Source: Candidatus Omnitrophota bacterium (GTDB taxonomy: Bacteria > Omnitrophota > Gorgyraeia > Zapsychrales > JANLHA01). From it: DNA of 64,000 bases. The stretch's first letter is position 1. Every line of letters begins with the position of its first letter. The translations under genes were made by a program, and so were the position numbers. The stretch is from contig JAHFFT010000006.1 of assembly GCA_023247795.1 (NCBI GenBank), positions 4,664-68,663 on the forward strand, given 5' to 3'. The notes beneath the pieces were generated by a model. The model made no database searches. It had not been told where the DNA came from and saw nothing but the letters and a program-made list of their open reading frames with translations. Positions 30,822-57,100 of the stretch are shown in pieces.

Positions 30822-30901
30822 AAGGTGAATAGTGAAAAGTGAATGGGGAATAGAAAAAACATTCCTTCTTCACCAATTTAACAAAAGGAAGTAAAGACTC
30901 T

Positions 30902-32830: not shown

Positions 32831-32953
32831 GATCTTTTGACGGGCGGGTGTCTTTGAATTAGATTTAAAGCGCATGGCATATCTTGAAGTGTGAAGAAGC
32901 ACAGCTAAAAATTTTCTTCCAGAAGCATTCTATTTTTTAATCATCCCCTTCTT

Positions 32954-38312: not shown

Positions 38313-38543
38313 ATGTATAAGAAAAGGAATCAAAAAAAGAAAGGGCAGAGTACGCTGGAATATATCATTTTAGTCACCGGTGTGATCGCCGTTCTTATTA
38401 TTTTTTTAAAGCCGGATACAGGTATTTTCACCCAGGCCTTCAATGGTGTTTTGGGTAGCGCCAAAGACGGCATGGTTAATATGTCAAACCGGTTATCGGG
38501 ATCTTGGCCTTCGGATCAAGTGGGTACAAAAACCGGGGGATAA
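38313..38543 (+). CDS. Flp/Tad-type prepilin A (76 aa)
   Basis: Leader MYKKRNQKKKG, then QSTLEYIILVTGVIAVLIIF (Gly at -1, Glu at +5 class-III prepilin motif). GGAGG RBS. Confidence 0.7.
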   Translation: MYKKRNQKKKGQSTLEYIILVTGVIAVLIIFLKPDTGIFTQAFNGVLGSAKDGMVNMSNRLSGSWPSDQVGTKTGG

Positions 38544-38578
38544 GATCAGCAAAGAAATTAAAAACGGAGGAACAATCC

Positions 38579-39010
38579 ATGTTTAGAAAGTTAATGAAGA
38601 ATAAGAAAGCGCAGCAGACCGCGGAGTACGCGTTGCTGATTTCGCTGGTGGTCGCGGCGGTGATCGCGATGCAGACTTACGCTCAGCGCGCGATTCAAGG
38701 ACGTATCCGCGATGCCTCGTCGTATTTGGTTGAGAAAACACCGGAACTCGGAGACATTAATCAATACGAACCTTATTATCTAAAAACCGATTATCATATT
38801 GACTCTTTTGATGAAACGACCGAGAGTCATACGAATGAAATCAAAGGCGGTAAATTCGAGTCTGACACCTACTCTGAACGCACCAGACAGAAAGATGGGT
38901 TTCAGGCTTCAGATTATAAGTCGGTTGTGACTGAAGATAGTTTTAAGCCCAGTGGAGGATCGGGCACCAGTACCGGAGGAACGCCTCCAGCTGGCGGCAC
39001 GACCCCGTAA
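38579..39010 (+). CDS. TadE-like pseudopilin B
   Basis: MFRKLMKNKKA/QQTAEYALLISLVVAAVIAM (TadE-type N-terminus). GGAGG RBS at 38565. Confidence 0.65.
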   Translation: MFRKLMKNKKAQQTAEYALLISLVVAAVIAMQTYAQRAIQGRIRDASSYLVEKTPELGDINQYEPYYLKTDYHIDSFDETTESHTNEIKGGKFESDTYSERTRQKDGFQASDYKSVVTEDSFKPSGGSGTSTGGTPPAGGTTP

Positions 39011-39073
39011 TAGAGGATGCTAAATTGATCCAATTCTCTTTGCAGAGAAATTAAATTGAGGAGGAGGCGAGAC

Positions 39074-39397
39074 ATGTTTAAATTTTTAAGGAAGATGAAA
39101 GGGCAGAGCACCCTGGAATACGCGGTTTTGATCATCATTGTCATTGGTGCTTTGTTGTCCATACAAATGTATATTAAGCGCGGCATCCAAGGTCGTCTAC
39201 GAAGTGCTGCCGACGATATCGGCGATCAGTATGATCCAGGTAACGTCAATTATCGTGTTCACACAACTGTTGTTAGTAACACGCACGATACATTTATAGA
39301 CGGGAAAACCAATTCGACCTTATTGCAGCCGGAAAAAACAATCACAACGGTCAATTCCGAGATTGTTAACGCGGAGCAGACCTTTTGGGGGAGATGA
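39074..39397 (+). CDS. prepilin-like protein C (GDQYDP family)
   Basis: MFKFLRKMKG/QSTLEYAVLIIIVIGALLSI...DDIGDQYDPGN. GAGGAGG RBS. Confidence 0.65.
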   Translation: MFKFLRKMKGQSTLEYAVLIIIVIGALLSIQMYIKRGIQGRLRSAADDIGDQYDPGNVNYRVHTTVVSNTHDTFIDGKTNSTLLQPEKTITTVNSEIVNAEQTFWGR

Positions 39398-39469
39398 TTG
39401 GATCTTCATGATACCCGCAAAATGGAGAAGCATTTTGTTAAGTTAACAAGAGGGCCCAGGAGGACAGCA

Positions 39470-39700
39470 ATGATAAAGAAAAGGAATCAAAAAAAGAAAG
39501 GGCAGAGCACGCTGGAATATATCATTTTGGTCACCGGTGTGATCGCCGTTCTTATTATTTTTTTAAAACCGAATGGAGGCATTTTTACCAAGGCCTTCGA
39601 TGGTGTTTTGAATAGCGCCAAAGACGGCATGGTTAATATGTCAAACCGGTTATCGGGATCTTGGCCTTCGGATCAAGTGGGTACAAAAACCGGGGGATAA
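39470..39700 (+). CDS. prepilin A' (paralog of 38313)
   Basis: MIKKRNQKKKGQSTLEYIILVTGVIAVLIIFL..., nearly identical to A. Confidence 0.7.
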   Translation: MIKKRNQKKKGQSTLEYIILVTGVIAVLIIFLKPNGGIFTKAFDGVLNSAKDGMVNMSNRLSGSWPSDQVGTKTGG

Positions 39701-39735
39701 GATCAGCAAAGAAATTAAAAACGGAGGAACAATCC

Positions 39736-40119
39736 ATGTTTAGAAAGTTAATGAAGAATAAGAAAGCGCAGCAGACCGCGGAGTACGCGTTGCTGATTTC
39801 GCTGGTGGTGGCAGCGGTGATCGCGATGCAGACCTACGCCCAGCGCGCGATTCAAGGACGTATCCGCGGCGCATCGGCGTGGCTGGTTTCCGCGACAAAT
39901 GAGATTGGAACAACGAACCAGTATGAACCGTATTATTTGGACACCAAATATGAAATTGACAGCTATGATAAAACCACGGAGGTTCATACGAATCAAGCCG
40001 GCACCGGCGGTAAGTTTGACACCGATACTTATTCTGAGCGCACCAGAAAAGCGGGTGGTGCCCAAGTTTCAACGTATGATATGCCTATAAAGACCGATGA
40101 AACACAGTGGAAAAATTAA
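39736..40119 (+). CDS. TadE-like pseudopilin B' (paralog of 38579)
   Basis: N-terminal 60 aa identical to B. The C-terminal half has diverged. Confidence 0.65.
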   Translation: MFRKLMKNKKAQQTAEYALLISLVVAAVIAMQTYAQRAIQGRIRGASAWLVSATNEIGTTNQYEPYYLDTKYEIDSYDKTTEVHTNQAGTGGKFDTDTYSERTRKAGGAQVSTYDMPIKTDETQWKN

Positions 40120-40207
40120 TAACCGCTGAGGGTGTTCAGATTTCAAGCGGAGGTTAAGAGGATTAAAATCTCTTTTTAGAGAAATTCAATTAAGGAGGAG
40201 GCAAGAC

Positions 40208-40540
40208 ATGTTTAAATTTTTAAGGAGGATGAAAGGGCAAAGCACCCTGGAATACGCGGTATTGATTATCATTGTCATCGGGGCCTTGCTGTCGATACAA
40301 ATGTATATCAAGCGTGGTATCCAAGGCCGGTTGCGCAGTGCGGCCGACGACATCGGCGATCAGTACGATCCAGGTAACACCAATTATGTTAGAACAACCG
40401 AGGTTGCCAGCAATACGAGGGATACTTTTAAAGCCGGCATTACGAATTCTGTTTTACTAGATGATGAGACGACCACGACAATTGTGAATAGTACAATTAT
40501 CAATGCCGAGCAGACCTTTTGGGGAAATGAGAAAAAGTAG
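40208..40540 (+). CDS. prepilin-like protein C' (paralog of 39074)
   Basis: MFKFLRRMKGQSTLEYAVLIIIVIGALLSIQMYIKRGIQGRLRSAADDIGDQYDPGN. C-terminus diverged. Confidence 0.65.
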   Translation: MFKFLRRMKGQSTLEYAVLIIIVIGALLSIQMYIKRGIQGRLRSAADDIGDQYDPGNTNYVRTTEVASNTRDTFKAGITNSVLLDDETTTTIVNSTIINAEQTFWGNEKK

Positions 40541-40595
40541 TAAAATTATGGAATTCTCCGAAATAGCGGCGTTGCATTTTTTTATGGGAGGATGA

Positions 40596-40757
40596 ATGTT
40601 GGGTTGGCGTAAAAGAGGAAAGACCGGTCAGAATTTGGTCGAATACGCGATTGTTATCGCGGTGGTGGCGTCGGCGATGTACGCGATGAGCACCTATGTC
40701 TTTCGTTCTGTTCAATCAACCCAGCAGATGATCCAGCGGGAGTTTTCCCGTCAATAA
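40596..40757 (+). CDS. flp: canonical Flp pilin (53 aa)
   Basis: Manual translation: MLGWRKRGKTG/QNLVEYAIVIAVVASAMYAMSTYVFRS... Classic Flp motif G-x-x-x-V-E-Y-A-I-V. Under 60 aa, so absent from the ORF track. Confidence 0.7.
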   Translation: MLGWRKRGKTGQNLVEYAIVIAVVASAMYAMSTYVFRSVQSTQQMIQREFSRQ

Positions 40758-40837
40758 ATTGAGTATGTCATTAAGACATTTTGGGGTATCAAAGGCAATG
40801 CCTCAAAATGAAAAAGGCAAATAAGTAAAATAAGCAT

Positions 40838-40888
40838 GGCTTACTTTAAAGAAGATTTCTCATCTTGAAGTAAGCCTTGTTTTTTCTT
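40838..40888 (+). terminator. Rho-independent terminator after flp
   Basis: 8-bp stem GGCTTACT/AGTAAGCC, then TTGTTTTTTCTT. Confidence 0.55.
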
Positions 40889-40896
40889 AAACGTGT

Positions 40897-40960
40897 TCCC
40901 CGCTCCCTAGCCCTCCCCGCAGAGGAAAGGGAAAAAGATCTTAGCTCAATGGGGGAGGGA
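40897..40960. repeat. palindromic repeat family B copy
   Basis: CCCCGCTCCCTAGCCCTCCCCGC...AATGGGGGAGGGAAG matches the copy at 24918-24974. Confidence 0.5.
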
Positions 40961-40982
40961 AGTTGTGATGAGAGGTTGAGGC

Positions 40983-41402
40983 ATGTTTAAAAATTTACGA
41001 GACAATAAGGGCCAAGGCATCGCGGTGCAATATGTGCTGGTCTTTTTTATCGTGATTGCCTTTGTTTCGTCGATGTCGGTTTATGTCCGTCGAGTTTTGC
41101 AAAGCCGTATCCAGGGTGCCGGCGATTTTTTAGTGAAGCAAGTGTATGCCATCCATTCCAACGCGGAAATGAATTTTTTAGGGAACCTGGTCCGAGAATA
41201 CGAACCGTATTATGTTCAGTCGGACAGTCGACGGTTTACCAACAGCGATACGTTAAGACGGGAAGATGTTTTTGCCCCAGCCACGAATGTCAGTGTTTAT
41301 CGGATGGACATGGACGATAGCACAGCCGTGAAATCCGTATCGAAGCAGAAGCGGCCGATCGATGCCCTGAAAGATCAGGGCCTTCAGCCGCCGCACCTGT
41401 AA
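40983..41402 (+). CDS. TadE-like pseudopilin paralog (139 aa)
   Basis: ...NKGQGIAVQYVLVFFIVIAFV... hydrophobic prepilin-like N-terminus, with the Glu at +5 replaced by Gln. Confidence 0.5.
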   Translation: MFKNLRDNKGQGIAVQYVLVFFIVIAFVSSMSVYVRRVLQSRIQGAGDFLVKQVYAIHSNAEMNFLGNLVREYEPYYVQSDSRRFTNSDTLRREDVFAPATNVSVYRMDMDDSTAVKSVSKQKRPIDALKDQGLQPPHL

Positions 41403-41417
41403 GAGCAGAGGAGTAAG

Positions 41418-41753
41418 ATGAGATTTGGTCATCGAGAAAACGCCCAGACATTTTTGGAATACTCGCTTTTGATCGGGATTGTGGTGGCGGTTTTGATGGC
41501 CATGTCGCCGATGTTGCGGCGATCGACGCAGGCGATGATTAAAGTGGTTTCCGATCAGGTCGGGGACCAGGTCAATTCCGAACAAGAAGGCGGTGACCAG
41601 GGGCATTTGGATTCCGTGAATACCATAACACGGGTGGATCGGCAGATCAGCACCATTGATCGTTTGGGGACGAGAAGGATCGATTATGATAAGGATTCGA
41701 CATTTACTGATTCGAGCGTGATTGTGAACCAAGGATTTCGGGAAACGAATTGA
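41418..41753 (+). CDS. prepilin-like protein (111 aa)
   Basis: ...ENA/QTFLEYSLLIGIVVAVLMAM.... Confidence 0.55.
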   Translation: MRFGHRENAQTFLEYSLLIGIVVAVLMAMSPMLRRSTQAMIKVVSDQVGDQVNSEQEGGDQGHLDSVNTITRVDRQISTIDRLGTRRIDYDKDSTFTDSSVIVNQGFRETN

Positions 41754-41808
41754 TTGTGAATTGAATAGTGAATTAGAGAAGAGTGAAATAAGGAGCGAGG
41801 TGTCAAAA

Positions 41809-42120
41809 ATGAGGCAAAGAGGACAAAGCACGTTAGAGTATATGATTCTGCTGATTTTGATCATCGCCGCGTTCATCGCGATCGGTAACTATTTTGGCCG
41901 CGGGGTGTTGGGGCGCTGGAAGGCCGCGGTGGATGATTTGGGGGATCAATATGATCCGCGGTTAACCAACGGCAAAGTGACGGTCAGTTTGTCGGCCAAT
42001 ATGGAAAGCCGGGTTGTTTCCGTTCCTGATGAGACCCGTGAAGGCGTATGGACGATTCGTACTGATCAATCCAACTCTCTTGAGCGGCGTTCGGGATTCA
42101 CCAGCGTCGGAGGGTTTTAA
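41809..42120 (+). CDS. prepilin-like protein (GDQYDP family)
   Basis: MRQRG/QSTLEYMILLILIIAAFIAI...DDLGDQYDPRLTN. AAGGAG RBS. Confidence 0.6.
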   Translation: MRQRGQSTLEYMILLILIIAAFIAIGNYFGRGVLGRWKAAVDDLGDQYDPRLTNGKVTVSLSANMESRVVSVPDETREGVWTIRTDQSNSLERRSGFTSVGGF

Positions 42121-42125
42121 GCTTT

Positions 42126-43553
42126 ATGAGTCATGGTTTTTATACAAAATGGTTCAAATTCCCGCAGGCCGCTCAGGCCGCTTCGGAGTTGGCGATTTTT
42201 GGCGCTATTTTGATCTTTGTCATAGGGCTGATTGTCCGCACCGGATTCAATACCAGCCAGAATTTAAATCAGCAGCTCAGGGCGTTTCGATTCGCGCTTA
42301 CAGAGTCCTATAAAACGGGAGAAGGGCAGTATACCGGCCGCCGCCCGTCTCGGGCACGCAATGCCGCTTCTATTCTTCTGATTGAAGATCGTTTGTCCAT
42401 CAACGGTGCTGATCAATTGGGAGAACGTGATCGGATTCCTTATATGACAAGTGCTTCCGGAACTTTCAGCCGAAATTTGTTGATGCCGCTGGCTTTTGAA
42501 AGCACCCAACACTTACCTATATTTGATTTGATTGTGAATGGCCAGCGGTTTCCTTTCATTACGTCAGCATTTAAGGAATATGATTTAATGACGATGTATC
42601 GGGATAACGAAGCGAAGCATTGTGATCATGATCCTCATCCGAGAGGGACCTGCTGGGACAAGAATTGTAATGGCGGACAAGGATGCGTTATTTTTTATAC
42701 AAAGATTGTTAGGGCGAATGCTATCGGAAAGTTTAATTCCGGCTGTGAGAAATGCTTTGATTTGGATTTGGATGGAAAGGTGGATGTCCCGTCGGAATTA
42801 CGAACCAATTTTCATTGGCAGTGGCAGACGGTCGAGGGGTTGAAAGAAAATATTGATCCCGCGAATGATCTGAACTCGAGCATGGACGTTGATGGTGATT
42901 TAAAGGAAGAGAGCGTGTTAGAGGTTGTGGGAGTTCCTCCGCCGGCGTCCGATCCTAATGCGACATTAGCGGCCTATCAAGCAGAAGTCGCCAAGCACGC
43001 GAATGAAATTCAGTCGCTCAAGGTGGTTGATTTTCAGGAGGGGGACGTCAATTTGGGGTTTGATGATCAGGACGCGGCGCTACGCGAGGAACAGGGACTG
43101 TCAAAGCGTAAATTTGGATTGGATGATGATGTTGCCATTTACGCGATGACAAAAGAGGGAACCATGCTGCGAGTGGAACAGGGAAAATTATTTGATCCGT
43201 TAACTTCTCAATTCATCCGCAACACCAATCGACAGGACCACGCGGAATTGATCCAACGCATTTTTTATATTGATAACGATACGGGACGCTTTTGCACATC
43301 CGACGGTCAACCTTTGCAGTGGAAATACGCCGATGGGAGTCCTAGCGAATGGGCCAAGAAAAATGCCGTCGCAGGCTTAGATAATCCAGTGGAGGCCTGC
43401 AATAACTGTTTTTCTCAGGATAATATCGAGCTTACTTGTATGGATCAAGGGAAGGACCGTCCTCACGAAGGCCCGATCATTTTTATCCGCAGCCGAATCA
43501 AGGACCTGCGCGGCCGACGCTGGGTAACGAGGTTGGAGGAGTTTGATAAGTGA
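42126..43553 (+). CDS. 475-aa protein with pilin-like N-terminus and Cys-rich extracellular region
   Basis: ...AAQAASELAIFGAILIFVIGLIV..., then ...HCDHDPHPRGTCWDKNCNGGQGC.... Confidence 0.45.
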   Translation: MSHGFYTKWFKFPQAAQAASELAIFGAILIFVIGLIVRTGFNTSQNLNQQLRAFRFALTESYKTGEGQYTGRRPSRARNAASILLIEDRLSINGADQLGERDRIPYMTSASGTFSRNLLMPLAFESTQHLPIFDLIVNGQRFPFITSAFKEYDLMTMYRDNEAKHCDHDPHPRGTCWDKNCNGGQGCVIFYTKIVRANAIGKFNSGCEKCFDLDLDGKVDVPSELRTNFHWQWQTVEGLKENIDPANDLNSSMDVDGDLKEESVLEVVGVPPPASDPNATLAAYQAEVAKHANEIQSLKVVDFQEGDVNLGFDDQDAALREEQGLSKRKFGLDDDVAIYAMTKEGTMLRVEQGKLFDPLTSQFIRNTNRQDHAELIQRIFYIDNDTGRFCTSDGQPLQWKYADGSPSEWAKKNAVAGLDNPVEACNNCFSQDNIELTCMDQGKDRPHEGPIIFIRSRIKDLRGRRWVTRLEEFDK

Positions 43554-43855
43554 AAGGTGAAGAGAGAGTAGTGAATAAAAAAATTCAAGCCCAGGTGACC
43601 ATCGAGTTTACTTTCAGCATGATGATCACGTTATTGTTGATCGTCGGGATGATTAAGGTCTTCACCTGGACCGGACGGGATTTGGCCGACCGTATTCACG
43701 CCCATGAAGAGATTTTAACTAAGGATTTAGGGTGTACCAGCTCTTCTTGTCCTATGAAGCAGATTAAGCCCACGTTTTATACGGCGACGGACATCGATGC
43801 CGCCTACCCCGCGAATTTTTTCAATTTTGACATGAAAGGGCTTGAGAAGGATTAA
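43550..43855 (+). CDS. TadE-like pseudopilin (101 aa)
   Basis: ...KIQAQVTIEFTFSMMITLLLIV.... Start overlaps the upstream stop by 4 nt. Confidence 0.55.
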   Translation: MKGEERVVNKKIQAQVTIEFTFSMMITLLLIVGMIKVFTWTGRDLADRIHAHEEILTKDLGCTSSSCPMKQIKPTFYTATDIDAAYPANFFNFDMKGLEKD

Positions 43856-43869
43856 ACGAGCAGCCATAG

Positions 43870-46800
43870 GTGGTTTTTGTGATCAATGAATTGAATAAAA
43901 AAATAATGCAGGTAAAAAGGTTTTTTCAAATCCGAAATCCGATTTCTGAAAAACACCGTTCAGAAAAAGGGCAGATCGCGGTGATTTTGATTTTGGTCGC
44001 CGCGGTCGGTCTGATTTTTTACGCGGTCGTGTTCAATTTTAACCGCATTTCGCAAATCAAAACGTTAACCATGCAGGCGGCAAATGCCTCGGCAGCTCAG
44101 ATGGTTTCTTCGATGGCGAGTTATGGAGAGTCGGTTTGGCAGGTGTATTTGAGAGGCAAGCTCGATGGGAAGAAACCAGGCTATTGTAAGCATGATAATG
44201 TTTTTAAGATGATCATCAAATTCATCATTATCCTCATCATTGTTATTATTGCCGTTATTACGGGACAATGGTGGGCTATATACGCAATCATAGCATTGGC
44301 ATATAGTTTTGTGGCGATTGTCTTGCAAGTTACGGTGGTCCAACCCGGGCTAACCGATGCCTGGAATAAAATGATCGCCAATTTATCGATCGCCGATCAA
44401 TTTGTTGAGATGGGGGTGCAAGCGGGCATTCAGGGTGTCGTTACGGACAATGTGCAAATTCCCGATTTGATTGACAGCGACTCTGATGGAATTTTTGGCG
44501 ACCTGCAGAATCCTTCTGATAAAAAAAGCGCGCCGGACTACATCTCACGTTTTGGATATAACTATACCCAGCGGTTGCGGCGGATTCCTATAGTTGATAG
44601 TTCCGCTGTCAATTATTTTATCAATGGAATAAAAGATGTGGGCGGTTTGAAGGATTTATTAGTGAAGACCGGCGATGTCAATGACTGGGGAGTTCATGCG
44701 GCTGGAACTGGGAGCGCCCTATCGGCATGCTGTTTGCCCGATGCTGCAGAAAATCCGGACCGTCCGGCCTGTTGCGATCTTCCCATCGACAATGATGATT
44801 TCTGCGGTGACAAAGATAAAGATAACTATGATGAAGAGTGTTCGTTGGGCGTTCGTCCGGAGGGGTGTCCTTCGAACTCGAAAGCCATCTGCGCAAAGGA
44901 AAGTATTTATTCTACCGTCACTAATCAGAACCCTCAGGGTCTATATAATGGTCGATATGATTACCCCTATGCCTACGAAGCCTTTCCGGAAAACACGAAT
45001 AATGCGGCATTGTCTTTCCGTGCGCAGTTAGGCCGAGATGATGAACACCATTTGTATCGACGAGATCCCAATAATCCCAATGGGCGGCAGCTGTTGATTT
45101 CGCCGATTCCCCCTGAGGGAACGCCAGGGCGGTTTTTTGTTGAAGACGCCAGCGGGGTTTTTCCATTTTTTTATAAGATTGGCCAATGGGGCGTTGATTT
45201 GAATGAAATCGATTATAGTAAAGTCACAACCGAGGATGTCCGTTGCAACTTGTGCGATGCAGGTAAGATGCTAGGCGCTCCTTTAAACTCTTCTACGAAT
45301 CCAGGCGTTTGTACGAATCTTCCCAGCGAGGTTTCACCGCAGTTGAGTCTGCCGCTTAATCCGACGCAAGACGGAGGTTTTCGACCCAGTGGCGGCTGGT
45401 GTGTGGATAGTGTCAATACCGGGAAGGCAGGAGATCCGCCGCAGGTCTTGGATATTGTGCCGTCGATCAATGAGTTATTTACGCCAACTAATCCAAATCC
45501 AGATTCAATACCTCCCGAAGAAGAATGCGCGGTTGGCCCAGGCAACGCCGGAGGCTGGAAACCAGGTGCGGACCGGTTTTGTTCTACTGTATATCCTTAT
45601 TCGTCCGCCTGTTTTAAGCATGGAGGAAAGGATCAGTGTTTGGTTGATTCAGAAATGGGACCGATAGGGTTTGACTGCCTGTGCGGCGAGGGGGCGGCGG
45701 CTTCCGTATCTGCGAATCTATGGCCTGATGACGCGTTGGACGAAATCGTTTATGGGCTGCCTTATTTCATTGAATACGCCCAAGGGTTGGTCAATGTTTC
45801 TACGATACAATTGAATCAGACCCTTGTCGAGTGGTATGAACAGACCGCGGATTGGATTGAGCCGGGGTGTGAGCGCACGGAAAATCCTAGCTGTCCACCG
45901 GGGTGCGAAGCAAATTCTAGTTGTCCACCGGGATGTGAAAAGAAGACCAGCTGTCCGGGGAGTTTTACAAAGAAAGGTCGTGATGGCCCGTTGAAAACCG
46001 TGAGCGGGAAGATGGTTGCGGGATCGGTATTGGATAAAAATGAGAAAGGGGAAAATGAGAAAATCGTCGGTGGGGGCGGATATCTTTATGGTTGGGTACG
46101 GGACTTGGCCAATTTTCGTAACCCAATTTATCATTGGTTGTATCCCACACAGGAAAAGGCCTATGTTGCCGACTCTTGCACGATCAAGTCCGCGGCTGAT
46201 GATAAAGCCGCTTGGTGTGTTCCGCCGTCACAGAATTCGAAGAACAACTTTGATGTGAAGGAATGTCCCGGCGTGACCGCTGAAGAGGCTGAAACTTTCG
46301 ACGCGAATAAAAATGGGGTTCGCGGTGATGTCGAAGACGTGGTGGCTTGCCTGCGGTTTAACGCCGGCGATGCCGCTAAGGGAAAGTTGAGCAATGAAGC
46401 GAAGTTCACGGCTTGTCAAACGGCTTGCTCAACGGGGACGGATGTCACGACCCAGTGCGCGTATCTGCCGCGATCGGTGGTACCCGGGTTCATCAATAGT
46501 TATGAAAATTATTTTGACGGGCAGCAGGTGAAGGGCAATCCTTGCGCCGACACCAATTTTAAAACATTATTAGATAAAAGTGTTGAAGAATCCCGCAACC
46601 AAGATGTCAAATTGCAGAAGCGTTTGAAATTTTTAGACGGTCGTTTGAAAGAGGCCCAAAACATCGCCGGGGAGACCGGGGTTTTTACCGCAGCGATCAA
46701 CAAACTTGAGGCCTTTTTAAACGCGGGGACCAAGTTTGCTGCCCCTACGGTTAAACCGGTACAAGACCTAGGAAACGGATTAGTAGCATCGATCGTTGAG

Positions 46801-47667
46801 CAAATCGCTGACCCCGTTGTTGTTCTTAATAATCAAGATTCGCCGTCGGAGGCATTGATTCAAGAAATGCTGAAACCCGAAGTCGCGCCTGACCAAAAAG
46901 GGTTATCTTCGGTCGTCGTTTATGTCTGGCAGGATGCCCAGCGCGACGATTTGCGCACGACCGCCTCGGGACGCAAGACCTTTGAAGGTTATTGGCACGC
47001 GGTCAAGGCCGAGGTGCGTATGCCCACCCGCTGCAACTATGCCTGCGGGGTGAATGGGGGGTGGGATCCGGAATATCCTTCCATTAAGACCAAGACCAAA
47101 GGGTTTTTGGGAAGCACAAGATGTTATTATTTAGAAAACAGCGATGGTATGGTTAAGGCGCGGACCATTCGTTTTGATGAAGACGTGGATCCGAAAAAAA
47201 TGGCTTTCCCGAATGGAACGCCGATTTGGGATTTTCGTTTTTTTCATCCCGATGCTGGCAAGGCCAGCATTCAAAATATCCTCGCGGATTGTAAAGAGCA
47301 AGTGGATCCATTGATCGCGAATATGAGTAAAGGATGGGGGGACCCTAATCCTCCTCTCAATTGTTGTTTTGCGGAAAAACCAGAGGAACATCATTGTACG
47401 GAAGAAGAGGCCAAGACTTGCACAAACAAATTTTTTGGCGCAAGCTTTTTATTGGACAAGATTCCTGATTATATGGCCCTCGCTGGCAGCGACGCATATA
47501 AGTATCGGGTTTGTTGGCAGCGCGTGCACGAAGATCTTTTAGCGCACGGTGTAGCGACGGAATCCTGCGCTCAGTATTTTTTTGGCGGCGCTGACAGTGG
47601 GGGCCCCGCCGGGATGCGCATGAAATTTGTGCCTTGCGATGAGCGTTTTATTAAGGGATTCAATTGA
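43870..47667 (+). CDS. 1265-aa TadG-like membrane-anchored protein with a Cys-rich ectodomain
   Basis: N-terminus ...SEKGQIAVILILVAAVGLIFYAV... plus a second TM segment. About 45 Cys in total. Tandem SCPPGCE repeats encoded at 45885-45960. Confidence 0.7.
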   Translation: MVFVINELNKKIMQVKRFFQIRNPISEKHRSEKGQIAVILILVAAVGLIFYAVVFNFNRISQIKTLTMQAANASAAQMVSSMASYGESVWQVYLRGKLDGKKPGYCKHDNVFKMIIKFIIILIIVIIAVITGQWWAIYAIIALAYSFVAIVLQVTVVQPGLTDAWNKMIANLSIADQFVEMGVQAGIQGVVTDNVQIPDLIDSDSDGIFGDLQNPSDKKSAPDYISRFGYNYTQRLRRIPIVDSSAVNYFINGIKDVGGLKDLLVKTGDVNDWGVHAAGTGSALSACCLPDAAENPDRPACCDLPIDNDDFCGDKDKDNYDEECSLGVRPEGCPSNSKAICAKESIYSTVTNQNPQGLYNGRYDYPYAYEAFPENTNNAALSFRAQLGRDDEHHLYRRDPNNPNGRQLLISPIPPEGTPGRFFVEDASGVFPFFYKIGQWGVDLNEIDYSKVTTEDVRCNLCDAGKMLGAPLNSSTNPGVCTNLPSEVSPQLSLPLNPTQDGGFRPSGGWCVDSVNTGKAGDPPQVLDIVPSINELFTPTNPNPDSIPPEEECAVGPGNAGGWKPGADRFCSTVYPYSSACFKHGGKDQCLVDSEMGPIGFDCLCGEGAAASVSANLWPDDALDEIVYGLPYFIEYAQGLVNVSTIQLNQTLVEWYEQTADWIEPGCERTENPSCPPGCEANSSCPPGCEKKTSCPGSFTKKGRDGPLKTVSGKMVAGSVLDKNEKGENEKIVGGGGYLYGWVRDLANFRNPIYHWLYPTQEKAYVADSCTIKSAADDKAAWCVPPSQNSKNNFDVKECPGVTAEEAETFDANKNGVRGDVEDVVACLRFNAGDAAKGKLSNEAKFTACQTACSTGTDVTTQCAYLPRSVVPGFINSYENYFDGQQVKGNPCADTNFKTLLDKSVEESRNQDVKLQKRLKFLDGRLKEAQNIAGETGVFTAAINKLEAFLNAGTKFAAPTVKPVQDLGNGLVASIVEQIADPVVVLNNQDSPSEALIQEMLKPEVAPDQKGLSSVVVYVWQDAQRDDLRTTASGRKTFEGYWHAVKAEVRMPTRCNYACGVNGGWDPEYPSIKTKTKGFLGSTRCYYLENSDGMVKARTIRFDEDVDPKKMAFPNGTPIWDFRFFHPDAGKASIQNILADCKEQVDPLIANMSKGWGDPNPPLNCCFAEKPEEHHCTEEEAKTCTNKFFGASFLLDKIPDYMALAGSDAYKYRVCWQRVHEDLLAHGVATESCAQYFFGGADSGGPAGMRMKFVPCDERFIKGFN

Positions 47668-47715
47668 TAGATCAATCCGCCCCTTCAATGGGGGAGGTCA
47701 GGTGGGGGTTTTTCA

Positions 47716-48102
47716 TTGGCAAAAGGAAATATGATGTGTTACAATCGGTTTGATCGACGCTGTCAAAATGAGCGCGGCGTTTCTTCGGCCATCGAATATA
47801 TGGCCATGATCACTTTTATTTTGATGGCGTTTTTTATTTCCCAACATTTTATTATGAAGGGTTTTGCCGGACGCTGGAAAGCGGCCGGCGACGCGTTTGG
47901 ACACGGTAAGCAATATGACCCCAGAGATTCTACTAAGGGTGGAAGTGTTGAGTGTTTTTTTGACGCCAAAAAGTCGTTGTGGATCAGCACCCGCTGTTTT
48001 AAATCGAAATGTGTCACTGGAATACCGTCGGATCCGGATTGTCAGCAGTTTTTGGATCCATGCAGTGAGTTGCAATCAGCGAATTCGAAATGCGGTGATT
48101 GA
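47716..48102 (+). CDS. prepilin-like protein (Cys-containing C-terminus)
   Basis: ...ERG/VSSAIEYMAMITFILMAFFI...GRWKAAGDAFGHGKQYDPRD. Confidence 0.55.
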   Translation: MAKGNMMCYNRFDRRCQNERGVSSAIEYMAMITFILMAFFISQHFIMKGFAGRWKAAGDAFGHGKQYDPRDSTKGGSVECFFDAKKSLWISTRCFKSKCVTGIPSDPDCQQFLDPCSELQSANSKCGD

Positions 48103-48120: not shown

Positions 48121-48975
48121 ATGGTCATAGCGTTATTTTTAGCCTTTTGTACCGCGGCCTTGATCGGCTATGCTGTTGTGCCGCTGGTTTATAGCCGGTC
48201 CATGATTTTAAGTCAAAAACGGGCCAGTGTTTACGCGAGCAAGCTGGATCGGGTCCTTCCTCGTCGAGAGTTGCAGAAGACGATCCAACTGTATATGCTG
48301 GCACCTTTGTTTCTAGGGGCTATTTTTTATTTTGTTTTCCCAGAAGAGATCCGTTTTTTTGGCGTCATTCTGGGGGCCATTCTCGGGTTCATTTTTCCTG
48401 GTATCTACACGACGGTCCTACTGAAAAATAACCGTAAAAAATTTGATGATCAGATGATCGACGCGTTGATGATCATGTCAAGTTCTTTCCGGGGAGGGTT
48501 GAGTTTGATCCAAGCGATGGAAGCGGTGGTTGAGGAAATGCCGGACCCGATCAATCAGGAATTCGCGACGATTTTGGGAGAAAACAAAATGGGCGTTTCA
48601 CTTGAAGACGCGTTGACGCATTTTTATACCCGCATGCCGAGCGCGGCCGTTCAACAGACAATCACGGCGGTGTTATTGGCGAGAGAAACCGGCGGAAATT
48701 TGCCGGAGATTTTTAAGCGGATTGTTAACGTCATGCGCGAACGCAAGCGTATTCAAATGCAAATCGACACCCTCACCCTGCAGGGAAAGATTCAAGGGGT
48801 TGTGATGTCAATTTTGCCGGTCGCCTTTTTCTTTGTGATCAGATCTTCGAGCGCGGGGTTTTATGACCATATGTTCAAATCAGAGGTGGGGCGGGTATTG
48901 CTGATCTTTGCCTGTGTGGCGGAGATCGTCGGGGTGTACTTGATTTGGCGGATCAGTCTGTTAAAGGATTATTAA
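48121..48975 (+). CDS. tadB: Flp pilus assembly inner-membrane protein TadB
   Basis: T2SS-F-like domain ...MSSSFRGGLSLIQAMEAV...LLARETGGNLPEIF... with flanking TM helices. Confidence 0.8.
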   Translation: MVIALFLAFCTAALIGYAVVPLVYSRSMILSQKRASVYASKLDRVLPRRELQKTIQLYMLAPLFLGAIFYFVFPEEIRFFGVILGAILGFIFPGIYTTVLLKNNRKKFDDQMIDALMIMSSSFRGGLSLIQAMEAVVEEMPDPINQEFATILGENKMGVSLEDALTHFYTRMPSAAVQQTITAVLLARETGGNLPEIFKRIVNVMRERKRIQMQIDTLTLQGKIQGVVMSILPVAFFFVIRSSSAGFYDHMFKSEVGRVLLIFACVAEIVGVYLIWRISLLKDY

Positions 48976-49064
48976 TGTGACCGTGACTTACGGAGCGAAA
49001 GCGAACGTAAGTCACTGGCCGGATTAACCCCGGCTGATTTTGGCGGGGTGGATAATAAAAGGAT

Positions 49065-49952
49065 GTGGTTATGTTGATGTTCATTTTGACTTTGTGCTTT
49101 TTAGCCGGATTCAGTTTCATTCTGGGGATTTTCCCTTTGGATTGGGAGGCGCGGCCGACGCTGCGCGGTACCGGACTTGAGGTATTATCTCGTCGGAAAA
49201 TACCGAATCCTTTAAAGGTCATCATCCAGACTCTGGCTTTGATCAACCGTCCTTTGTGTTCAGGGGTTGTTCGCGCCCGGCTTATCAAAGATTTGGGGAC
49301 GGCGCACGTGAATATGTCGCCGGAAGAGTTTTTTTTGGTCAAAGAAATGGCGATCGTTGGCCTTCTTTTTGTCACCTATCCGATGATCCGTGCGGACATG
49401 ATGATGTTTTGGCTTTTGATGAGCATTTCGGTCGGTTATATGCTGCCGGAATATTGGTTGAAGGGAAAGATTAAGCGGGTCAAAATCATGATCGCAAAAG
49501 AACTGCCAGATACCATTGATCTTTTGGGGTTGTGCGTGAACGCGGGTTTGGATTTTATCCTGGCCTTAAAATGGGTTGTTGAGAAATCTCCCCCCACGGT
49601 TATTGTCACGGAACTTAATACGTTGCTGCAGGAAATCAATGTGGGGAAAACCCGTCGAGACGCGCTTAAAGATTTATCGTTGAAGTATGAGCTCCCAGAT
49701 TTGTCTTCTTTTACGAGAACGCTTATTCAGGCGGATAAAATGGGGACATCGGTCTCTGAGGCCTTAAACGTTTTATCTGAAGACATGCGGATTGCTCGTT
49801 TCCGCCGCGGGGAGCAGCAAGCGATGAAAGCTCCGCTCAAGCTACTCATTCCCCTGCTATTTTGCATCTTTCCAGTGGTCGGAATTCTCGTTGCCGGCCC
49901 TATCTTCCTCGAGTTCATCGAAACCAACCCCCTTCAACAGCTCGGTAAGTAA
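49065..49952 (+). CDS. tadC: Flp pilus assembly inner-membrane protein TadC
   Basis: T2SS-F-like domain ...LLGLCVNAGLDFILALKWV...LIQADKMGTSVSEALNVLSEDMR.... Confidence 0.8.
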   Translation: MVMLMFILTLCFLAGFSFILGIFPLDWEARPTLRGTGLEVLSRRKIPNPLKVIIQTLALINRPLCSGVVRARLIKDLGTAHVNMSPEEFFLVKEMAIVGLLFVTYPMIRADMMMFWLLMSISVGYMLPEYWLKGKIKRVKIMIAKELPDTIDLLGLCVNAGLDFILALKWVVEKSPPTVIVTELNTLLQEINVGKTRRDALKDLSLKYELPDLSSFTRTLIQADKMGTSVSEALNVLSEDMRIARFRRGEQQAMKAPLKLLIPLLFCIFPVVGILVAGPIFLEFIETNPLQQLGK

Positions 49953-51156: not shown

Positions 51157-51174
51157 AATTAACCGAGTATGACT

Positions 51175-54100
51175 ATGGACGAAAGCAGATTGGACATTAA
51201 AAATATAAGTACTACTAGAGGCAGTATTAAAAATTTTAATACTAATAGAGATAGTCTTTCGTCTATATTGCCGCATATTCTCCCAAAGGAAGAACCAAAA
51301 CCATTCAAAAGCGGGTTTAAGCATTGGATTCGTATCGTTGCCATGATCGTGATCGCGGTGTTTTTGCCGGAACAGATCAGCTGGGCGTTCAACTACAACC
51401 CAGCAGTTCTCTGGGGAGGGCCAAAGCAGGATTTGATGCACTTAGCCCAGCCCGCACCGGTTATGCCAACTCCGGCGCAAGTCCAAATTCCAGTTGTCCC
51501 TAGCGATGCCGAGATTTCTCAGCAGCTTTCGCAAAGCGTACACGATATGCTCGGCCGCATTGCTTATCTTGAAAACGCGCAAGTTCAATTCGACCTGCAA
51601 AACCCCAACGATCCAAACAAAAAGCCGCAATCATCAATTCAAATCAAACCAAAGAACGTTGTCACCGAACAAAGCATGATGGCCTATGTCGAGTGGCTGC
51701 GCCAGCCAGGGATTAAACCCCTCAACTGCGGTGTCTATGCTTTGCGGGATTTATTGGGAGCCAACGGATTGCAGGTGAGTTTGCAAGAGTTGTCATTAGC
51801 CACATTGATGGAGGACATCTTAAACGGCATTATCAAACCCGGAGATCCTAAACTCAAGACCTCACTTTACGCGATCGATAAAGTCGCTCAAGGTTATAAC
51901 CTGAATCTCAAGGCCGCAAAAGTCCTGCCGCAGGATGTCGTAAAACTCAAAACACCGTTTATCGCCAACCTTGATCCCGAACATTTTGTTACGGTCACGT
52001 TGATTGAGCAGGATAAGGTGAGTTATTTTGATGTCGGCCGTCCGACCATCCTGGCTAAAGACGAATTCATCAAGCAGGCCAATGGGTTTGTCCTAGCGCC
52101 GGATATGGAAAAGCAAACAATCGAATACGCCTTAGTCTCTGATTCGATGAAGGCCTTTGTCTGGGGCAGCCAGTGGGTGAGGATGAAGGATGATTTGCCC
52201 GGCTTGATTGATGATGGAGATATGTGGGACGAGATATATGTCGAGATCGCTATTGAACTTATTGAGGCTTACTTTTTTGGGCCGGCCGTGGCTGTTATGG
52301 CATATGGAGCCTCTGATCTGGCAAGTACTTTGACTGAAATATGTGTGATGAAGAATGTTTGCGGTGAAAATGACACGTTTATTTTTAATTTCATTTTTAC
52401 CACGGTGCTGATGGCCGCTGGAATGTCTATGGGGGATTTCGCAACGGGAGCGGAAAACGGAGTCCTGAAAGAGGGTGCTAAAGGTGGGCTTAAAGAGGGC
52501 GTTAAAGATGGGACTAAAGAGGGAGCTAAAAAGGGGCTTGAAGATACCGCCAAAAGTACGGCGCCGTCCGCGACTGGTGAAGTCGCGGCAACAGCACCAG
52601 CCATCGAACCTGCCGCTGCAGGCGCGTCCCCAACCATTGGTTCAAGATTGGTCGATTCAATCAAAACCGGCACTCAAAATTTTTATAATGAAATGAAAAT
52701 TTCGTTGACCGACTTTGGCAATAAAGTCGTTGGATTTTTTAAAGGGATCGGCGAGTTAGCACAAAAAGGTTTTAATTTTGTAGTGGGTGGTGGGGCGGAC
52801 AAGGCCCCCCAAGCGGCAGGGACGGCAGGACAAGCAACCAATAATTTGGGAGCTGCAAAAGAGCTTGCCAAAACCATGCCGGCGAAGTTCGATATGGCGA
52901 AGTCCTTAGATCGTTTATTTTCCGCCCAGGCCGTAAAGGCATTCTTTGTTGGAGGCATCAAAGCCCTGCCGAAAGCAATTGTCAGCGCGTACGTTAAACA
53001 GGAAGTGTATAAGATCGTGGATAGGAATATTTCCGAAGACATGAACCCCGCTATCCGTCAGGCGTTGGTGGGTGTTGTTTCGTCCATCGGCGGTGAGCTT
53101 TTGTTGGCGGCCGGCATCAAAGGGCTCGGCGCTGCTTTATCGGAGGTATCACCGGAAATGAATAACGCGCTCAGCAAATTATTCAACATGGGCACATACC
53201 AAAGCGAAGAGGACGCGCAGAAAAAGGCCGACGAAGTAGTTGACAATGCTAAAGCAGACACCATCAAAGCCGCTGATAAGACTGTTGAAGGTCAGAATTT
53301 GACAGCAGAGCAAAAAGAAGGAGTGCGAAATGCGGCACTCAAAGCCGATGAATATAAATTCAACGCGATTGAACGAACGGTTTATCAGTCGGAACTTGAC
53401 CGTATTAAGTCAGATAAAAATTATAGTCGTGATAATGACGCCTTTCATGCCAGCACATTTGTCGATGAGTTTAAAGTGATTGGCAAAACCATTGGGCCGC
53501 GTTTGGCGGGTGCCGCGGTCGCTGCTGGTCTGCGTTATCTCGCTGATAAAAATTGGGGTGATGCCGACGCCAAGTCGCAGGTTTCACAAATGATCGGTGA
53601 GATCGGCCAAGCCGTGGGCGGAATTTTATACGGAATTGCCATCAGGCAAGATTCGGGTTACACGAAGGAAGAGATCCATCAGGATAAGGATGGCACGAAG
53701 GAAACAAATTCAGATTATGATAAATATTATCGTGAGAATAAAATCACCGGAAAGCGGGAGTATGTTGCTGAAGGAGATGGCAAGACGATCTACAATCCGG
53801 AATATCCCGGCAGCGAGAAGGGAAAACATTATCTTTTGAGCGACCGAACGTATGGGGCCATGTTATACGATGCTCTTACCAGAGGGGCTGTTGGTCTGTT
53901 GGTCGCGCACGGCCTGGACAATTACGAAAAGCGAAATGTCGATGTGGACGCGAATGGCGATCAAAACCGTTACCAACTGGTTAAAGGACGTGCTGCCATA
54001 TTGGGTGGGCTGATTTTGATTGATACCATCGTGACGGACATTAATAAGTGGGCTGGTATCGATAACCCCGAGCGCTATTTAAAAGACGAAGGGGTCGGGA

Positions 54101-57100
54101 TCACGAAAATCGCCGGCGATTCGTTTATCGCGCGTTATTTCACGACCAGGGTGGCTGAACAATTGATCGCCATGGTCAGACCGATCGCGACTTTTAGCGG
54201 CAGTCTGCCGGGCGAAGACGGGGCCGGGGATGATAACCGCTGGGCGCGCGATCATAAAACCGCTTACGGCGAAAATTACACTTCAAGCCAACAGAATTAT
54301 TTGACTTATCTCACCCAGCTTTCCGAGATGACCGGCCAGTCTTTAGAAACGGTCAATCAGATCAAGGCGAATAGAGACGCGCTCAAAGAACAGCTTAATA
54401 GCGGCCAGATCACTAAGAGCGAGTACGAGGCCAGAAAAATGTTTGCTTTTCACGACATCATGTGGGCCGCAAATGGTGCTTTTTACGTCGATCGGATGAA
54501 TTCGGCAATGGCCGCGGGTTTCGTGAACAATTCTTTTCAAAGCGGCGGGATTTATGATGAGGTCGAGGCCATTCTCGGATACCTTCCGTTAAAAATAACT
54601 TCCGGACTAGCGTTAAATCACCGTGAGGTGGTTTTTAAAAAGGAGACCAAGGAGGGTGAACCTGATAAATTGATTGCCATTGCCACGACCAAGAGCCCAC
54701 GGGAACCGACGATCATTATGGGCGACACCTTGGGATTTGGCTGGGTCAAGGGGATGAATAACCTTAAGATCGATTCCGAGACCAATACGAGCTCGGTCGG
54801 TTTGGGATTTGATCATTTGACTAATCGTTTTCTGGGCTTCTTGACCGATAAGGAACAGAAAGAATTCAACGTGACGGCCGACGAGGCCGGGGTTTTTGAT
54901 TCACATACCGGAGAGAAAATAGTTGGGCTAGAAGAATTAAGGACGTTGAACCATCATCTTGGCATTTTAAATAAAATAAAGACCGGGCAAGCCTACCAGG
55001 AAGAGAACGGCGATGTTTTTGATACCAAGACCAATAAGGTGCTGGCATACGCGGCAGAGATGAAAGATGGGGAGTCCAAATATCAACTGATTACCGCGGA
55101 ATTGAAAAGCGGTCAAACGCAAATCCGCAATGGGATGGACGTGGATATGTTTTCCGGCAACGTGATTTCGAATGTTGCTTTTAAAGACGCCGACGGTAAA
55201 AAACTGGCTGCCGTGCGATTGGATTTTAAGCAAACTCCGGAAAATACCGAAGGCGATAGGAATGGCCAGTTTTTGGTTTTTGGCCGCGCGGACTTGGCAC
55301 GGGAATTTGATATTTCGGGTGTTAAGAACGATATCATCGATAAGATGAAAAAGTTGTCTCCGGACGCGCTTTGGGTGGAGGATGATCAGGGAGATGAAAT
55401 TTTTCATTTTATAGATGTTAAGTCTCTTGAAGAATTTAAAGATAGCATTGATTCGATTGCGAGATTGAAAGATAACCAAGATGAAATTTTAAGTTATGAT
55501 CCTGATTATGATGATGAAGAGCGCCTTGTTCCGAGCAAGCGCGTCATTTTAGACAGCGATGGAAGGGAACTTTTTGTCCTTGATAAGGACAACGCTGATC
55601 CCAGAATTACATTTAAAAAGGGATCGCTTGATTATGTCAAAGAGAATTTTAAAGAATACAGCGCCTCTGACCGGATAACAACATATCAGGGCGATGGTTT
55701 TGGCCGAAGGATTAAAGACGAGGATATCGGCTGGCAGGCGAGCAGACGGATTTCTACGGATGGCTCCGGACAGCAGCAGGACGAGATTGTTTCAAATAAG
55801 CTCGTCGGGGAATCAAGGCTCATTTCGACAGCGGCTTGGTTGCTGATGCCGGAGTTGGCGAATTTAGCGTTGAAGGAGAAAGATGGGGGTGGAGGGTTGG
55901 ATCCAAAGATTATGCGCAAGGTTTTGGAGCAAACAGCAGGAACAGATTCTTTAGGGGTGAGGATGCTGGCGTCCGGTCTTGATCAGGTTAATAAGATGCA
56001 CGCGGAGAATGATACACCATTCACTTATGATTTTGCCGGGACCGACACCCATGGCAAGACCATGTTTAAATTGCAGGGCAACAATAACGAAAACGGCAAG
56101 ATGACCATAATTTTTGATAAAAGCGGCAAGGCGAACATTCGTTTGGCGCGGGACAACAATGCTAACCTTGATATCTTCGACGGGGCGCTGAATTTGGTTG
56201 GCTACAATAAAGACGAGGCCGTGGCGATCAAGGCGATAAAAGCAGTAGGGCTGTCCGCCGCCGACATCATTTTTGGACGGGGGTTTGATGCGAATGTTTA
56301 TTCCATCAGGGATTTGGTGGCTCGGGAAGAGAAGAGTGATAAATTGGAAGCGGGCTTGACGGATTTGGTCATCAGTCAAGCAAACAGTCAATTAACGACA
56401 CTTTTGAATGATTATGGTTATGTTGGTATAACTAACATTGATGTTAATCATTTCCTCAGCAAAGTGAGTCCGTTTGATTTGATGGATAAAGGGTCGATCG
56501 CGATCGACGGGTCAGAGCCGGTCAAGGCAAGTAAGGATACCAGTGTTACGGTAACGGGTAATATTGTTAAAACAATGACTTACGATTTACCTGAGATGAA
56601 TGATTTGACCACCAGCAAGGTGGATCAGGGTAAGGATCTAGGGCAGATTTCTATGAGCGACGGGCGGGAGACAATCATGAGGTACGATCGTGTTGATGAT
56701 GATGTAAAGAGCAAATTTATAATGAAAAACGATCACGATGAGATGCGTGTGACGACCGCAGGCGATATTAGTGTAGATAATAATGTTTTCAAGATTATTA
56801 ATTATGATCCGACTGATGCGGATATGGCTCATGGCATAAAAGTGGATATTGAAGGTTTGAAAAATGCTTTGTGGGAAAATGATTGGGTTGCCACGAGCGC
56901 AGGATTGCGAGAGATTGTCAGCAATGCCAAGGAACTGCAAAAAAGCGAAAACAATCAGAAAGAAGCATTTAGAGAGGCAGTACAGACGTCGTTGGCTGAG
57001 ATGAAGCAATTCGATAAGGATTATGGGATGTCGGCTGTGGATCAGAATAAAGATCTGATCCTTGCCGCTCTGGGAAAAAATGATAAAGGTGAGCGCATCG

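Follow-up and report, generated by a model that had tools for sequence, protein, structure and literature searches.

What is the large cysteine-rich protein encoded among the minor-pilin genes of an Omnitrophota Tad/Flp pilus locus? Omnitrophota are widespread, ultra-small bacteria, thought to be predators or parasites. The window analysed here, 64,000 nucleotides of a Candidatus Omnitrophota contig, contains a complete Tad/Flp locus: RcpC; a secretin; a TadZ-TadA fusion; eight Flp-like pilins; TadB; and TadC. Within it, on the forward strand at 43870..47667, lies a gene for a protein of 1265 amino acids (aa). Comparison with its relatives makes it very probable that this protein is a TadG-class, extracytoplasmic, disulfide-rich component of the Tad machine. 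The fuller reading, in which it serves as the TadG-class subunit of the Omnitrophota Tad/Flp pilus machine, within a priming or tip complex that contacts prey, is the one that probably holds; on whether the protein sits at the pilus tip itself, the balance is about even.

The initial annotation's reading frame was confirmed: the gene (GTG start, stop codon included) is the sole long open frame in that stretch. The GTG start is favoured because the homologues' N-terminal motif, M-x-x-F-[IL]-N-K, also opens the 1265-aa protein. One database copy (P0001, 1253 aa) is called from an ATG located 12 codons downstream of the GTG.

The case for the TadG class starts at the N-terminus, whose pilin-like sequence is KGQIAVILILVAAVGLIF. 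A basic tail (aa 1-33; 43870..43968, forward strand), predicted from its sequence to be cytoplasmic, comes first; across the family, this tail has a median of 6 lysine or arginine residues versus 1 aspartate or glutamate, and presumably keeps the N-terminus in the cytoplasm. The candidate TadG-type module follows (aa 34-105; 43969..44184, forward strand): a G-Q dipeptide; a hydrophobic helix (aa 36-58); and an Ala/Ser-rich helix. The order of these elements is kept family-wide, as basic tail, G-Q, hydrophobic helix, N-x-G-R-x-S-Q-x-K, and Ala/Ser-rich helix. The initial annotation had called this N-terminus TadG-like, which is borne out at the level of the family: Pfam family PF13400 ('Tad', TadE/G-like) matches in register from the G-Q in 5 of 10 N-termini from the family in one set and in 21 of 60 in another. 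It is the commonest Pfam family for these N-termini (the next reaches 5 of 60), with a best E of 1.3e-5. The bit scores among the matches listed run from 13 to 19.6, under the cut-off of 22.3, and the window copy has no PF13400 match even at E <= 10. At the level of the family, the matches thus speak for a divergent N-terminal module of the TadG type, though less strongly than a match at a curated threshold would.

Other likenesses to proteins of the TadG/CpaL type point the same way. Those proteins likewise are encoded in a tad locus, with TadE-like and TadF-like genes alongside and with tadB and tadC following; they share the G-x hydrophobic helix at the N-terminus and the Ala-rich helix after it, a pairing that matches PF13400 in many members of the present family; and the 1265-aa protein, like them, is the largest of the minor-pilin set and lacks the glutamate at +5 (Glu+5) that marks the other pilins of the locus. 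The differences are also clear. The 1265-aa protein has no vWA domain with its metal-ion-dependent adhesion site, a domain frequent, though not universal, in TadG and CpaL; it has two extra hydrophobic helices; its window copy misses PF13400; and its ectodomain is about twice as long, with 43 cysteines and no detectable known fold.

How widely is the protein conserved, and in what company? A word-seeded search found 39 homologues, of which the named ones are 'hypothetical proteins' from Omnitrophota metagenome-assembled genomes (MAGs). A profile search of 1.84 billion representatives found 880 clusters at E <= 1e-3, with 405 at E <= 1e-30; the best 150 of the 880 cluster representatives are about 720-1730 aa long. 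Gene order was then compared by tblastn of the window's Tad proteins against 55 loci, drawn from a scan that took one genome for each GTDB species. Of these loci, 53 are labelled Omnitrophota or Omnitrophica, or belong to third-party annotation (TPA) bins labelled 'uncultured Planctomycetales/Planctomycetia'; the remaining two bear no label beyond 'bacterium' or 'uncultured bacterium'. Across all of them the order is fixed, on a single strand: TadZA (matched in 39 of the 55 loci); a 594-aa protein (40); a TadE-like protein of 475 aa (49); a TadF-like protein of 101 aa (48); the 1265-aa protein (all 55); a pilin-like protein of 128 aa (51); TadB (49); TadC (45); and the N-terminus of a giant protein (35). 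Counts below 55 are due, for the most part, to contig ends. The order recurs in two further loci, found by exact-protein look-up, where the giant neighbours measure 29,688 and 7,270 aa.

Earlier work had already tied the Omnitrophota Tad locus to predation and giant genes (Seymour et al. 2023, PMC10066038; West-Roberts et al. 2023, bioRxiv 10.1101/2023.11.21.568195); the locus and its giant-gene link are described in a 2026 preprint as well. In Seymour et al. (PMC10066038), a term search for TadG, cysteine and pseudopilin came up empty. The inventory given by West-Roberts et al. comprises gspD/E/F, rcpC, a rotamase and class III signal peptide genes; the region's other secretion-system proteins are described there as less well conserved (bioRxiv 10.1101/2023.11.21.568195). 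The gene of the 1265-aa family is left unnamed in the published locus descriptions.

What, then, are the cysteines for? The initial annotation had counted about 45 of them; the number is 44, which is even, as it had suggested should be checked, and amounts to 3.5% of residues, compared with 0-1.8% in neighbouring proteins and 0-2.1% across the other 19 proteins of the window. All 44 lie on the predicted outer side of the membrane, 43 of them in the ectodomain. The clustered CC and CxC patterns that it had described do not stand out: close pairs (CC, CxC, up to CxxxxC) number 9, versus 6.2 +/- 2.1 in composition-matched shuffles (P = 0.14). Nor is there a periodic pattern in the protein beyond a signal at lag 10, which is contributed by a local SCPPGCE repeat. 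Four other properties are far above chance: the enrichment of cysteine; the conservation of its positions; the paired gain and loss of the variable residues; and the even counts.

The evidence for conservation and covariation comes from an alignment of 157 full-length family members. Here, 19 cysteines of the 1265-aa protein reach a conservation of 90% or more, and 29 reach 70% or more. When the variable cysteines were scored by phi for shared presence and absence, five pairs emerged as reciprocal best partners: 459-481 (phi 0.62); 462-511 (0.77); 590-603 (0.73); 770-799 (0.79); and 853-863 (0.51). Of 156 homologues, 61 lack cysteines 462 and 511 together but mostly keep 459 and 481; each of the latter is kept in about 80-86% of homologues, and the two co-occur in 120 of 156. 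The total number of cysteines is even in 115 of the 157 members (p = 2.4e-9), and the number within the main variable module is even in 127. Neither shared ancestry nor alignment error enters into these statistics, which therefore amount to strong indications and fall short of proof. With that limit, the conserved positions, paired gain and loss, and even counts point to disulfides rather than metal sites, and the ectodomain appears to be cross-linked by roughly 15-22 disulfide bonds. The suggestion that the cysteines would behave as disulfide partners in an extracytoplasmic domain thus has fared well.

The same data bear on a different role for the cysteines, as ligands of iron-sulfur (Fe-S) clusters, zinc or haem in a metal or cofactor redox protein that would contain no disulfides. 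The protein does contain several CxxC, CxxxC and CxC motifs (CNLC, CQTAC, CNYAC and CLC). Moreover, many Omnitrophota are anaerobic, and periplasmic disulfide formation is less assured in such organisms. Disulfides nevertheless are favoured over a four-cysteine metal site because the two cysteines of the CNLC motif pair with different partners and are lost independently. More generally, the variable cysteines are gained and lost as independent pairs (462/511 versus 459/481), not in sets of four, and the even counts also argue against ligation. CxxCH is not among the close cysteine pairs; Pfam yielded no cofactor-binding domain; an enzyme fold is absent; and the predicted location is extracytoplasmic. 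A redox protein of this kind is highly improbable. A haem or Fe-S protein was rejected on the missing CxxCH and on covariation that is pairwise, not four-way.

Beyond the membrane segments, the protein continues as a predicted extracytoplasmic domain (aa 160-1265; 44347..47664, forward strand) that contains the 43 cysteines and appears to have a novel fold. The initial annotation had proposed disulfide-rich adhesin modules and recommended a structural search. Pfam and NCBIfam returned zero matches for the 1265-aa protein and its three neighbours; Pfam on 39 full-length homologues gave scattered noise and one PF13400 match, with no vWA, EGF or other domain; and a sequence-profile search of the PDB with the 1265-aa protein gave nothing at E <= 1. 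An AlphaFold2 (AF2) model of aa 160-1265, built from a 39-sequence alignment, has a mean predicted local distance difference test (pLDDT) of 73.8 and a predicted template-modelling score (pTM) of 0.72. Confident regions are a helical portion (aa ~738-959) and an alpha/beta portion at the C-terminus (aa ~992-1265); low confidence attaches to the CC-rich stretch (aa ~281-361) and to the loop with the SCPPGCE repeat (aa ~664-737). The C-terminal alpha/beta domain (46843..47664, forward strand) is conserved and contains seven invariant cysteines. Compared with the PDB by Foldseek, the ectodomain model matched nothing below E = 1. On this model, the ectodomain of about 1,100 residues is a fold without a solved relative.

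Several candidate identities accordingly were discarded. A vWA adhesin was rejected, with no vWA domain found by Pfam in 39 homologues or by the fold search. EGF-like or otherwise periodic cysteine modules were rejected on the lack of any Pfam match and of any periodicity beyond the lag of 10; the fixed cysteine spacing of EGF-like and tandem cysteine-rich adhesin repeats was not found in the 1265-aa protein. The proposal of adhesin modules therefore was not upheld. A cytoplasmic enzyme, which the initial annotation had named as the outcome that would count against it, also was rejected: no such fold was found, and the predicted topology speaks against it.

Two loops vary in length across the family. 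The main site of variation is a hypervariable cysteine-rich module, which in the window's protein takes a minimal form of 30 aa and 2 cysteines (aa 863-892, from C863 to C892; 46456..46545, forward strand), and in homologues extends from 2 to 494 aa (median 145) with 0-55 cysteines. The second, smaller loop spans 5-101 aa in the family, with 1-12 cysteines among the members listed. It is this second loop that bears the SCPPGCE tandem of the initial annotation, which is present together with its DNA repeat: a 30-bp tandem repeat at 45882..45956 (forward strand; 1.9-2.3 copies, 73-85% matches) that encodes SCPPGCE twice plus SCPG. The repeat peptide is PSCPPGCEANSSCPPGCEKKTSCPG (aa 673-697), and the peptide SCPPGCEANSSCPPGCEKKTSCPG is present in the protein. 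SCPPGCE was rejected as a family-defining motif, with CPPGC occurring in only one of the 157 members, the 1265-aa protein itself. Judged from the family alignment, the repeat is a lineage-specific local expansion in a variable loop, not a feature of the family.

How is the protein held in, or released from, the membrane? Hydropathy reveals three hydrophobic segments (aa 36-58, ~110-131, and 134-157), so the protein does not have a single N-terminal membrane helix leading straight to a globular part. The hydrophobic N-terminus of the initial annotation stands; its single second membrane helix gives way to two more helices, which form a hairpin. This two-helix hairpin is conserved family-wide after the pilin-like helix. 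It comprises Cys106, an almost uncharged pair of helices (aa ~110-157), and a conserved Q-P-G end (44185..44346, forward strand). In a 24-sequence alignment (A1), both Cys106 and Pro159 are invariant; among 156 homologues, 91% have Cys106. The span from C106 to P159 is 57 aa long at the median. Within the hydrophobic core of the hairpin, defined as that span minus its first 10 and last 4 residues, 2% of residues are charged, versus a background of 20%, and 74 of 153 members have no charged residue at all, turn included. Some homologues (P0005, P0007, P0018, P0022 and P0025) have one to three cysteines in the turn of the hairpin (for example, TEQCEGWG, CEGACG and YCNACS), where simple topology predicts the cytoplasmic face.

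Canonical TadG, CpaL and KilN have one N-terminal helix, and the additional hairpin invites a reading in which the three helices hold the protein permanently in the inner membrane as an assembly or anchoring factor that never leaves on the pilus. Its disulfide-rich domain would fill the periplasm as an alignment or base structure touching RcpC, the secretin or the giant protein. The first helix and hairpin are present family-wide and are long enough for two full spans in the hairpin (median C106-P159 span of 57 aa); Glu+5, found in the other pilins of the locus, is missing from the protein; and TadG of A. actinomycetemcomitans reportedly is an inner-membrane protein. However, a hairpin and turn so nearly devoid of charge would be expected of a segment pulled out towards the periplasm, with which it is at least compatible. 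Moreover, a hypervariable module of 2-494 aa suggests a surface exposed to other organisms, not a conserved periplasmic scaffold, and the current literature puts TadG-like proteins at tips (PMC12075869; PMC12607857; bioRxiv 10.64898/2026.07.08.737194). Permanent retention in the membrane consequently is doubtful.

A third possibility for the hairpin is more adventurous. The uncharged segment could be cargo, transported to the pilus tip while buried among the alpha1N helices, freed on contact, and inserted into the prey envelope in the manner of a fusion or translocon hairpin; it would then be no membrane anchor. This idea is decidedly speculative, and improbable at present. If true, it would define a new 'harpoon' class of tip subunit, with Tad retraction coupled to docking or delivery of the giant protein.

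Just beyond the hairpin lies an invariant acidic cluster (aa 193-211, VTDNVQIPDLIDSDSDGIFGD; 44446..44502, forward strand), a putative calcium loop of the DxDxDG type. Five of its residues, D193, D199, D202, D204 and D206, do not vary across 24 sequences, and its stretch PDLIDSDSDG resembles the DxDxDG calcium loop. The 475-aa protein has an acidic motif of its own, DVDGDLKEE (aa 254-262), in which D254, G257, D258, E261 and E262 are invariant in a 3-sequence alignment; among 85 homologues, D258 is invariant, and D254, D256 and E262 are at least 90% conserved. This sequence hints at a possible second calcium site, beside the DxDxDG loop of the 1265-aa protein.

The acidic loop recalls two families of accessory proteins, PilY1/PilC and GspK, each of which is a large protein acting alongside minor pilins, and proposed to prime assembly and cap the fibre; with the 1265-aa protein they share a conserved acidic loop of the DxDxDG type, a candidate calcium binder. 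They differ in that the 1265-aa protein has neither a beta-propeller nor a T2SSK domain (by Pfam, NCBIfam and fold search), and belongs to another class of filament, Tad/Flp. GspK has calcium sites, and the likeness raises the question of whether the complex works as in a type II secretion system (T2SS), capping a short pseudopilus that acts as a secretion piston. As a GspK analogue, the 1265-aa protein then would help a TadE/F/G-like complex to push or present the neighbouring giant protein through the secretin. The giant gene indeed follows immediately 3' in 35 of the 55 loci. The locus, by contrast, contains Tad-specific parts (RcpC, TadZ, and Flp-type class III pilins, with eight Flp-like genes), and no T2SSK/GspK Pfam match was found. 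Furthermore, the giant proteins themselves contain numerous transmembrane regions as well as SecA-like domains (bioRxiv 10.1101/2023.11.21.568195). A secretion piston is therefore unlikely, more so than a membrane-retained anchor.

The closest functional parallel comes from the Kil system of Myxococcus xanthus. There, KilL, KilM and KilN (homologues of TadE, TadF and TadG) are predicted to form heterotrimeric tip complexes, joined through a bundle of alpha1N helices and with numerous disulfides, in which the large TadG-like subunit is the backbone and carries a variable C-terminal domain at its extremity (PMC12075869). The initial annotation had considered a cysteine-rich tip unusual for a bacterial pilus; this precedent removes the anomaly. 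In Caulobacter, CpaL, CpaJ and CpaK likewise are predicted to form a tip complex (PMC12607857), and in Bdellovibrio, which also has a TadZA fusion, depletion of tadG impairs predation (bioRxiv 10.64898/2026.07.08.737194).

The likeness to the Kil tips has several parts: a predator or parasite lineage; adjacent TadE/F/G-like genes, here the cassette for the proteins of 475, 101 and 1265 aa; a large subunit with a variable domain, here the hypervariable module; and numerous predicted intramolecular disulfides, here suggested by conserved cysteines, covariation and even counts. There are also differences. No similarity of sequence or fold to the 1265-aa protein has been demonstrated; the Omnitrophota locus has one cassette, compared with four paralogous tips for Kil; and the 1265-aa protein adds the hairpin, a following fourth cysteine-rich small pilin, and a linked giant gene.

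This analogy, together with gene order, suggests that the most likely role of the 1265-aa protein is as backbone of a minor-pilin priming or tip complex. Its basic tail would stay in the cytoplasm; the TadG-type helix and the uncharged two-helix hairpin would sit in the inner membrane; and about 1,100 residues would lie outside the cytoplasm, cross-linked by disulfides. With the 475-aa TadE-like and 101-aa TadF-like proteins, and perhaps the 128-aa pilin, it would form a complex that primes pilus assembly and caps the pilus. A tip complex that includes the 475-aa protein, as the initial annotation had imagined, matches the current TadE/F/G model (PMC12075869; PMC12607857), from which the tip location is drawn by analogy. 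A disulfide-armoured, partly hypervariable surface then would touch the prey or host cell, jointly with the adjacent giant protein. Such a surface fits an exposed role in prey contact.

Some points weigh against a TadG-class tip subunit. The main difficulty is mechanical: with three hydrophobic helices in place of one, the protein would be awkward to pull out of the membrane into a filament. The window's protein is below every Pfam and NCBIfam threshold, and its link to TadG consists of sub-threshold to modest matches in relatives. Neither a pilin-like module nor an adhesin fold was detected in the ectodomain, whose AF2 model is moderately confident (pLDDT 73.8). Finally, the pair-covariation and parity statistics take no account of phylogenetic non-independence or alignment error.

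The neighbouring genes support the picture of a minor-pilin cassette, in the order TadE-like 475 aa, TadF-like 101 aa, 1265 aa, 128-aa pilin, TadB, and TadC. The initial annotation had pointed to a cysteine-containing, pilin-like protein of 475 aa at 42126..43553 (forward strand). This TadE-like minor pilin does have 10 cysteines and a class-III-type N-terminus (A/QAASEL), and its AF2 model (pLDDT 89.2) is pilin-like: a 'lollipop' with a 53-aa N-terminal helix and a beta-rich globular head, for which no fold match was found in the PDB. It has more than 260 homologues, and all that carry a source name are from Omnitrophota or Omnitrophica MAGs. The TadF-like small minor pilin (43550..43855, forward strand; 101 aa, 2 cysteines, N-terminus A/QVTIEF) starts within the end of the 475-aa gene, overlapping it by 4 bp. 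Both proteins have class III motifs, G/A-Q-x-x-x-E-[FL], with glutamate at +5, as in the TadE and TadF pseudopilins. Directly 3' of the 1265-aa gene lies that of the cysteine-rich pilin-like protein (47716..48102, forward strand; 128 aa, 8 cysteines). Within the locus from 38504 to 48102, the cysteines are sharply divided: the eight Flp-like pilins have none, whereas the counts for the four minor-pilin-like proteins downstream are 10, 2, 44 and 8, every one of them even.

The locus opens with a SurA-like peptidyl-prolyl isomerase and RcpC/CpaB. By Pfam, RcpC/CpaB, the secretin with a C-terminal TonB_C domain, and the TadZ-TadA fusion ATPase occupy 30033..35116 (forward strand). The TonB_C domain is at aa 554-629 of the secretin (30902-32830, forward strand), an architecture shared by two other loci (L001 and L002). 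TadZ (ParA/MinD-like) and TadA (a T2SSE ATPase) are fused in one 720-aa protein (32954-35116, forward strand), an unusual arrangement that was recently reported for Bdellovibrio too and recurs in L002. The 594-aa protein (35936-37720, forward strand), which has no Pfam match, is encoded between the TadZA gene and the pilin array, and holds the same position in 40 of the 55 Omnitrophota loci. The eight cysteine-free Flp-like pilin genes, with the class III signal motif G/A-Q-x-x-x-E-Y, are at 38504..42120 (forward strand). The array contains a tandem duplication of about 1.15 kb (38301-40540, forward strand; 300 nucleotides at 95% identity and 242 at 85%), which accounts for two near-identical pairs of Flp-like pilin genes, 38504/39056 and 39661/40208.

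Downstream of the cassette, the TadB-like and TadC-like platform proteins, each with T2SSF domains by Pfam, are encoded at 48121..49952 (forward strand). An IS200-like Y1 transposase gene (PF01797, E 1.4e-14; 50006-50545, reverse strand) is inserted between TadC and the giant open reading frame (ORF). The latter, identified by ORF scan and synteny with the Tad locus, begins about 1.2 kb after TadC, with a membrane helix, and runs past the end of the window (51163..63999, forward strand; at least 4279 aa). A Peptidase_C39 domain near its N-terminus (aa 189-313, E 2.9e-6) exceeds the Pfam cut-off, and its first 1000 aa are conserved 3' of TadC in 35 of the 55 Omnitrophota loci.

The window also takes in the chromosomal origin region of this Omnitrophota genome (positions 1-16835), where yidC, parA and parB on the reverse strand face dnaA, dnaN, gyrB and gyrA on the forward strand; a resistance-nodulation-division (RND) efflux pair and some dehydrogenases also lie on the forward strand. 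The Tad and giant-gene locus is about 20 kb from dnaA, resembling Velamenicoccus archaeovorus, whose Tad locus was reported at 12-30 kb of the genome.

Together, these results combine familiar elements with new ones. The Omnitrophota Tad locus and its link to giant genes were already known, as was, from Myxococcus, the precedent of a TadG-like tip subunit with many disulfides. New are the assignment to the TadG class, by sequence comparison, of a family that belongs to Omnitrophota wherever its members are named; the evidence for a conserved disulfide framework; about 1,100 residues with no known fold; the extra uncharged hairpin; and the hypervariable cysteine-rich module. The Tad locus and its adjoining giant genes are the main genomic clues to how Omnitrophota attack their hosts, and the 1265-aa gene, the largest unannotated gene of that locus, encodes a candidate prey-contact surface. 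Structural studies gain a defined target in this family, as would work towards a new Pfam family. Moreover, the idea of an adaptable Tad tip, from Myxococcus, would extend to a distant phylum.

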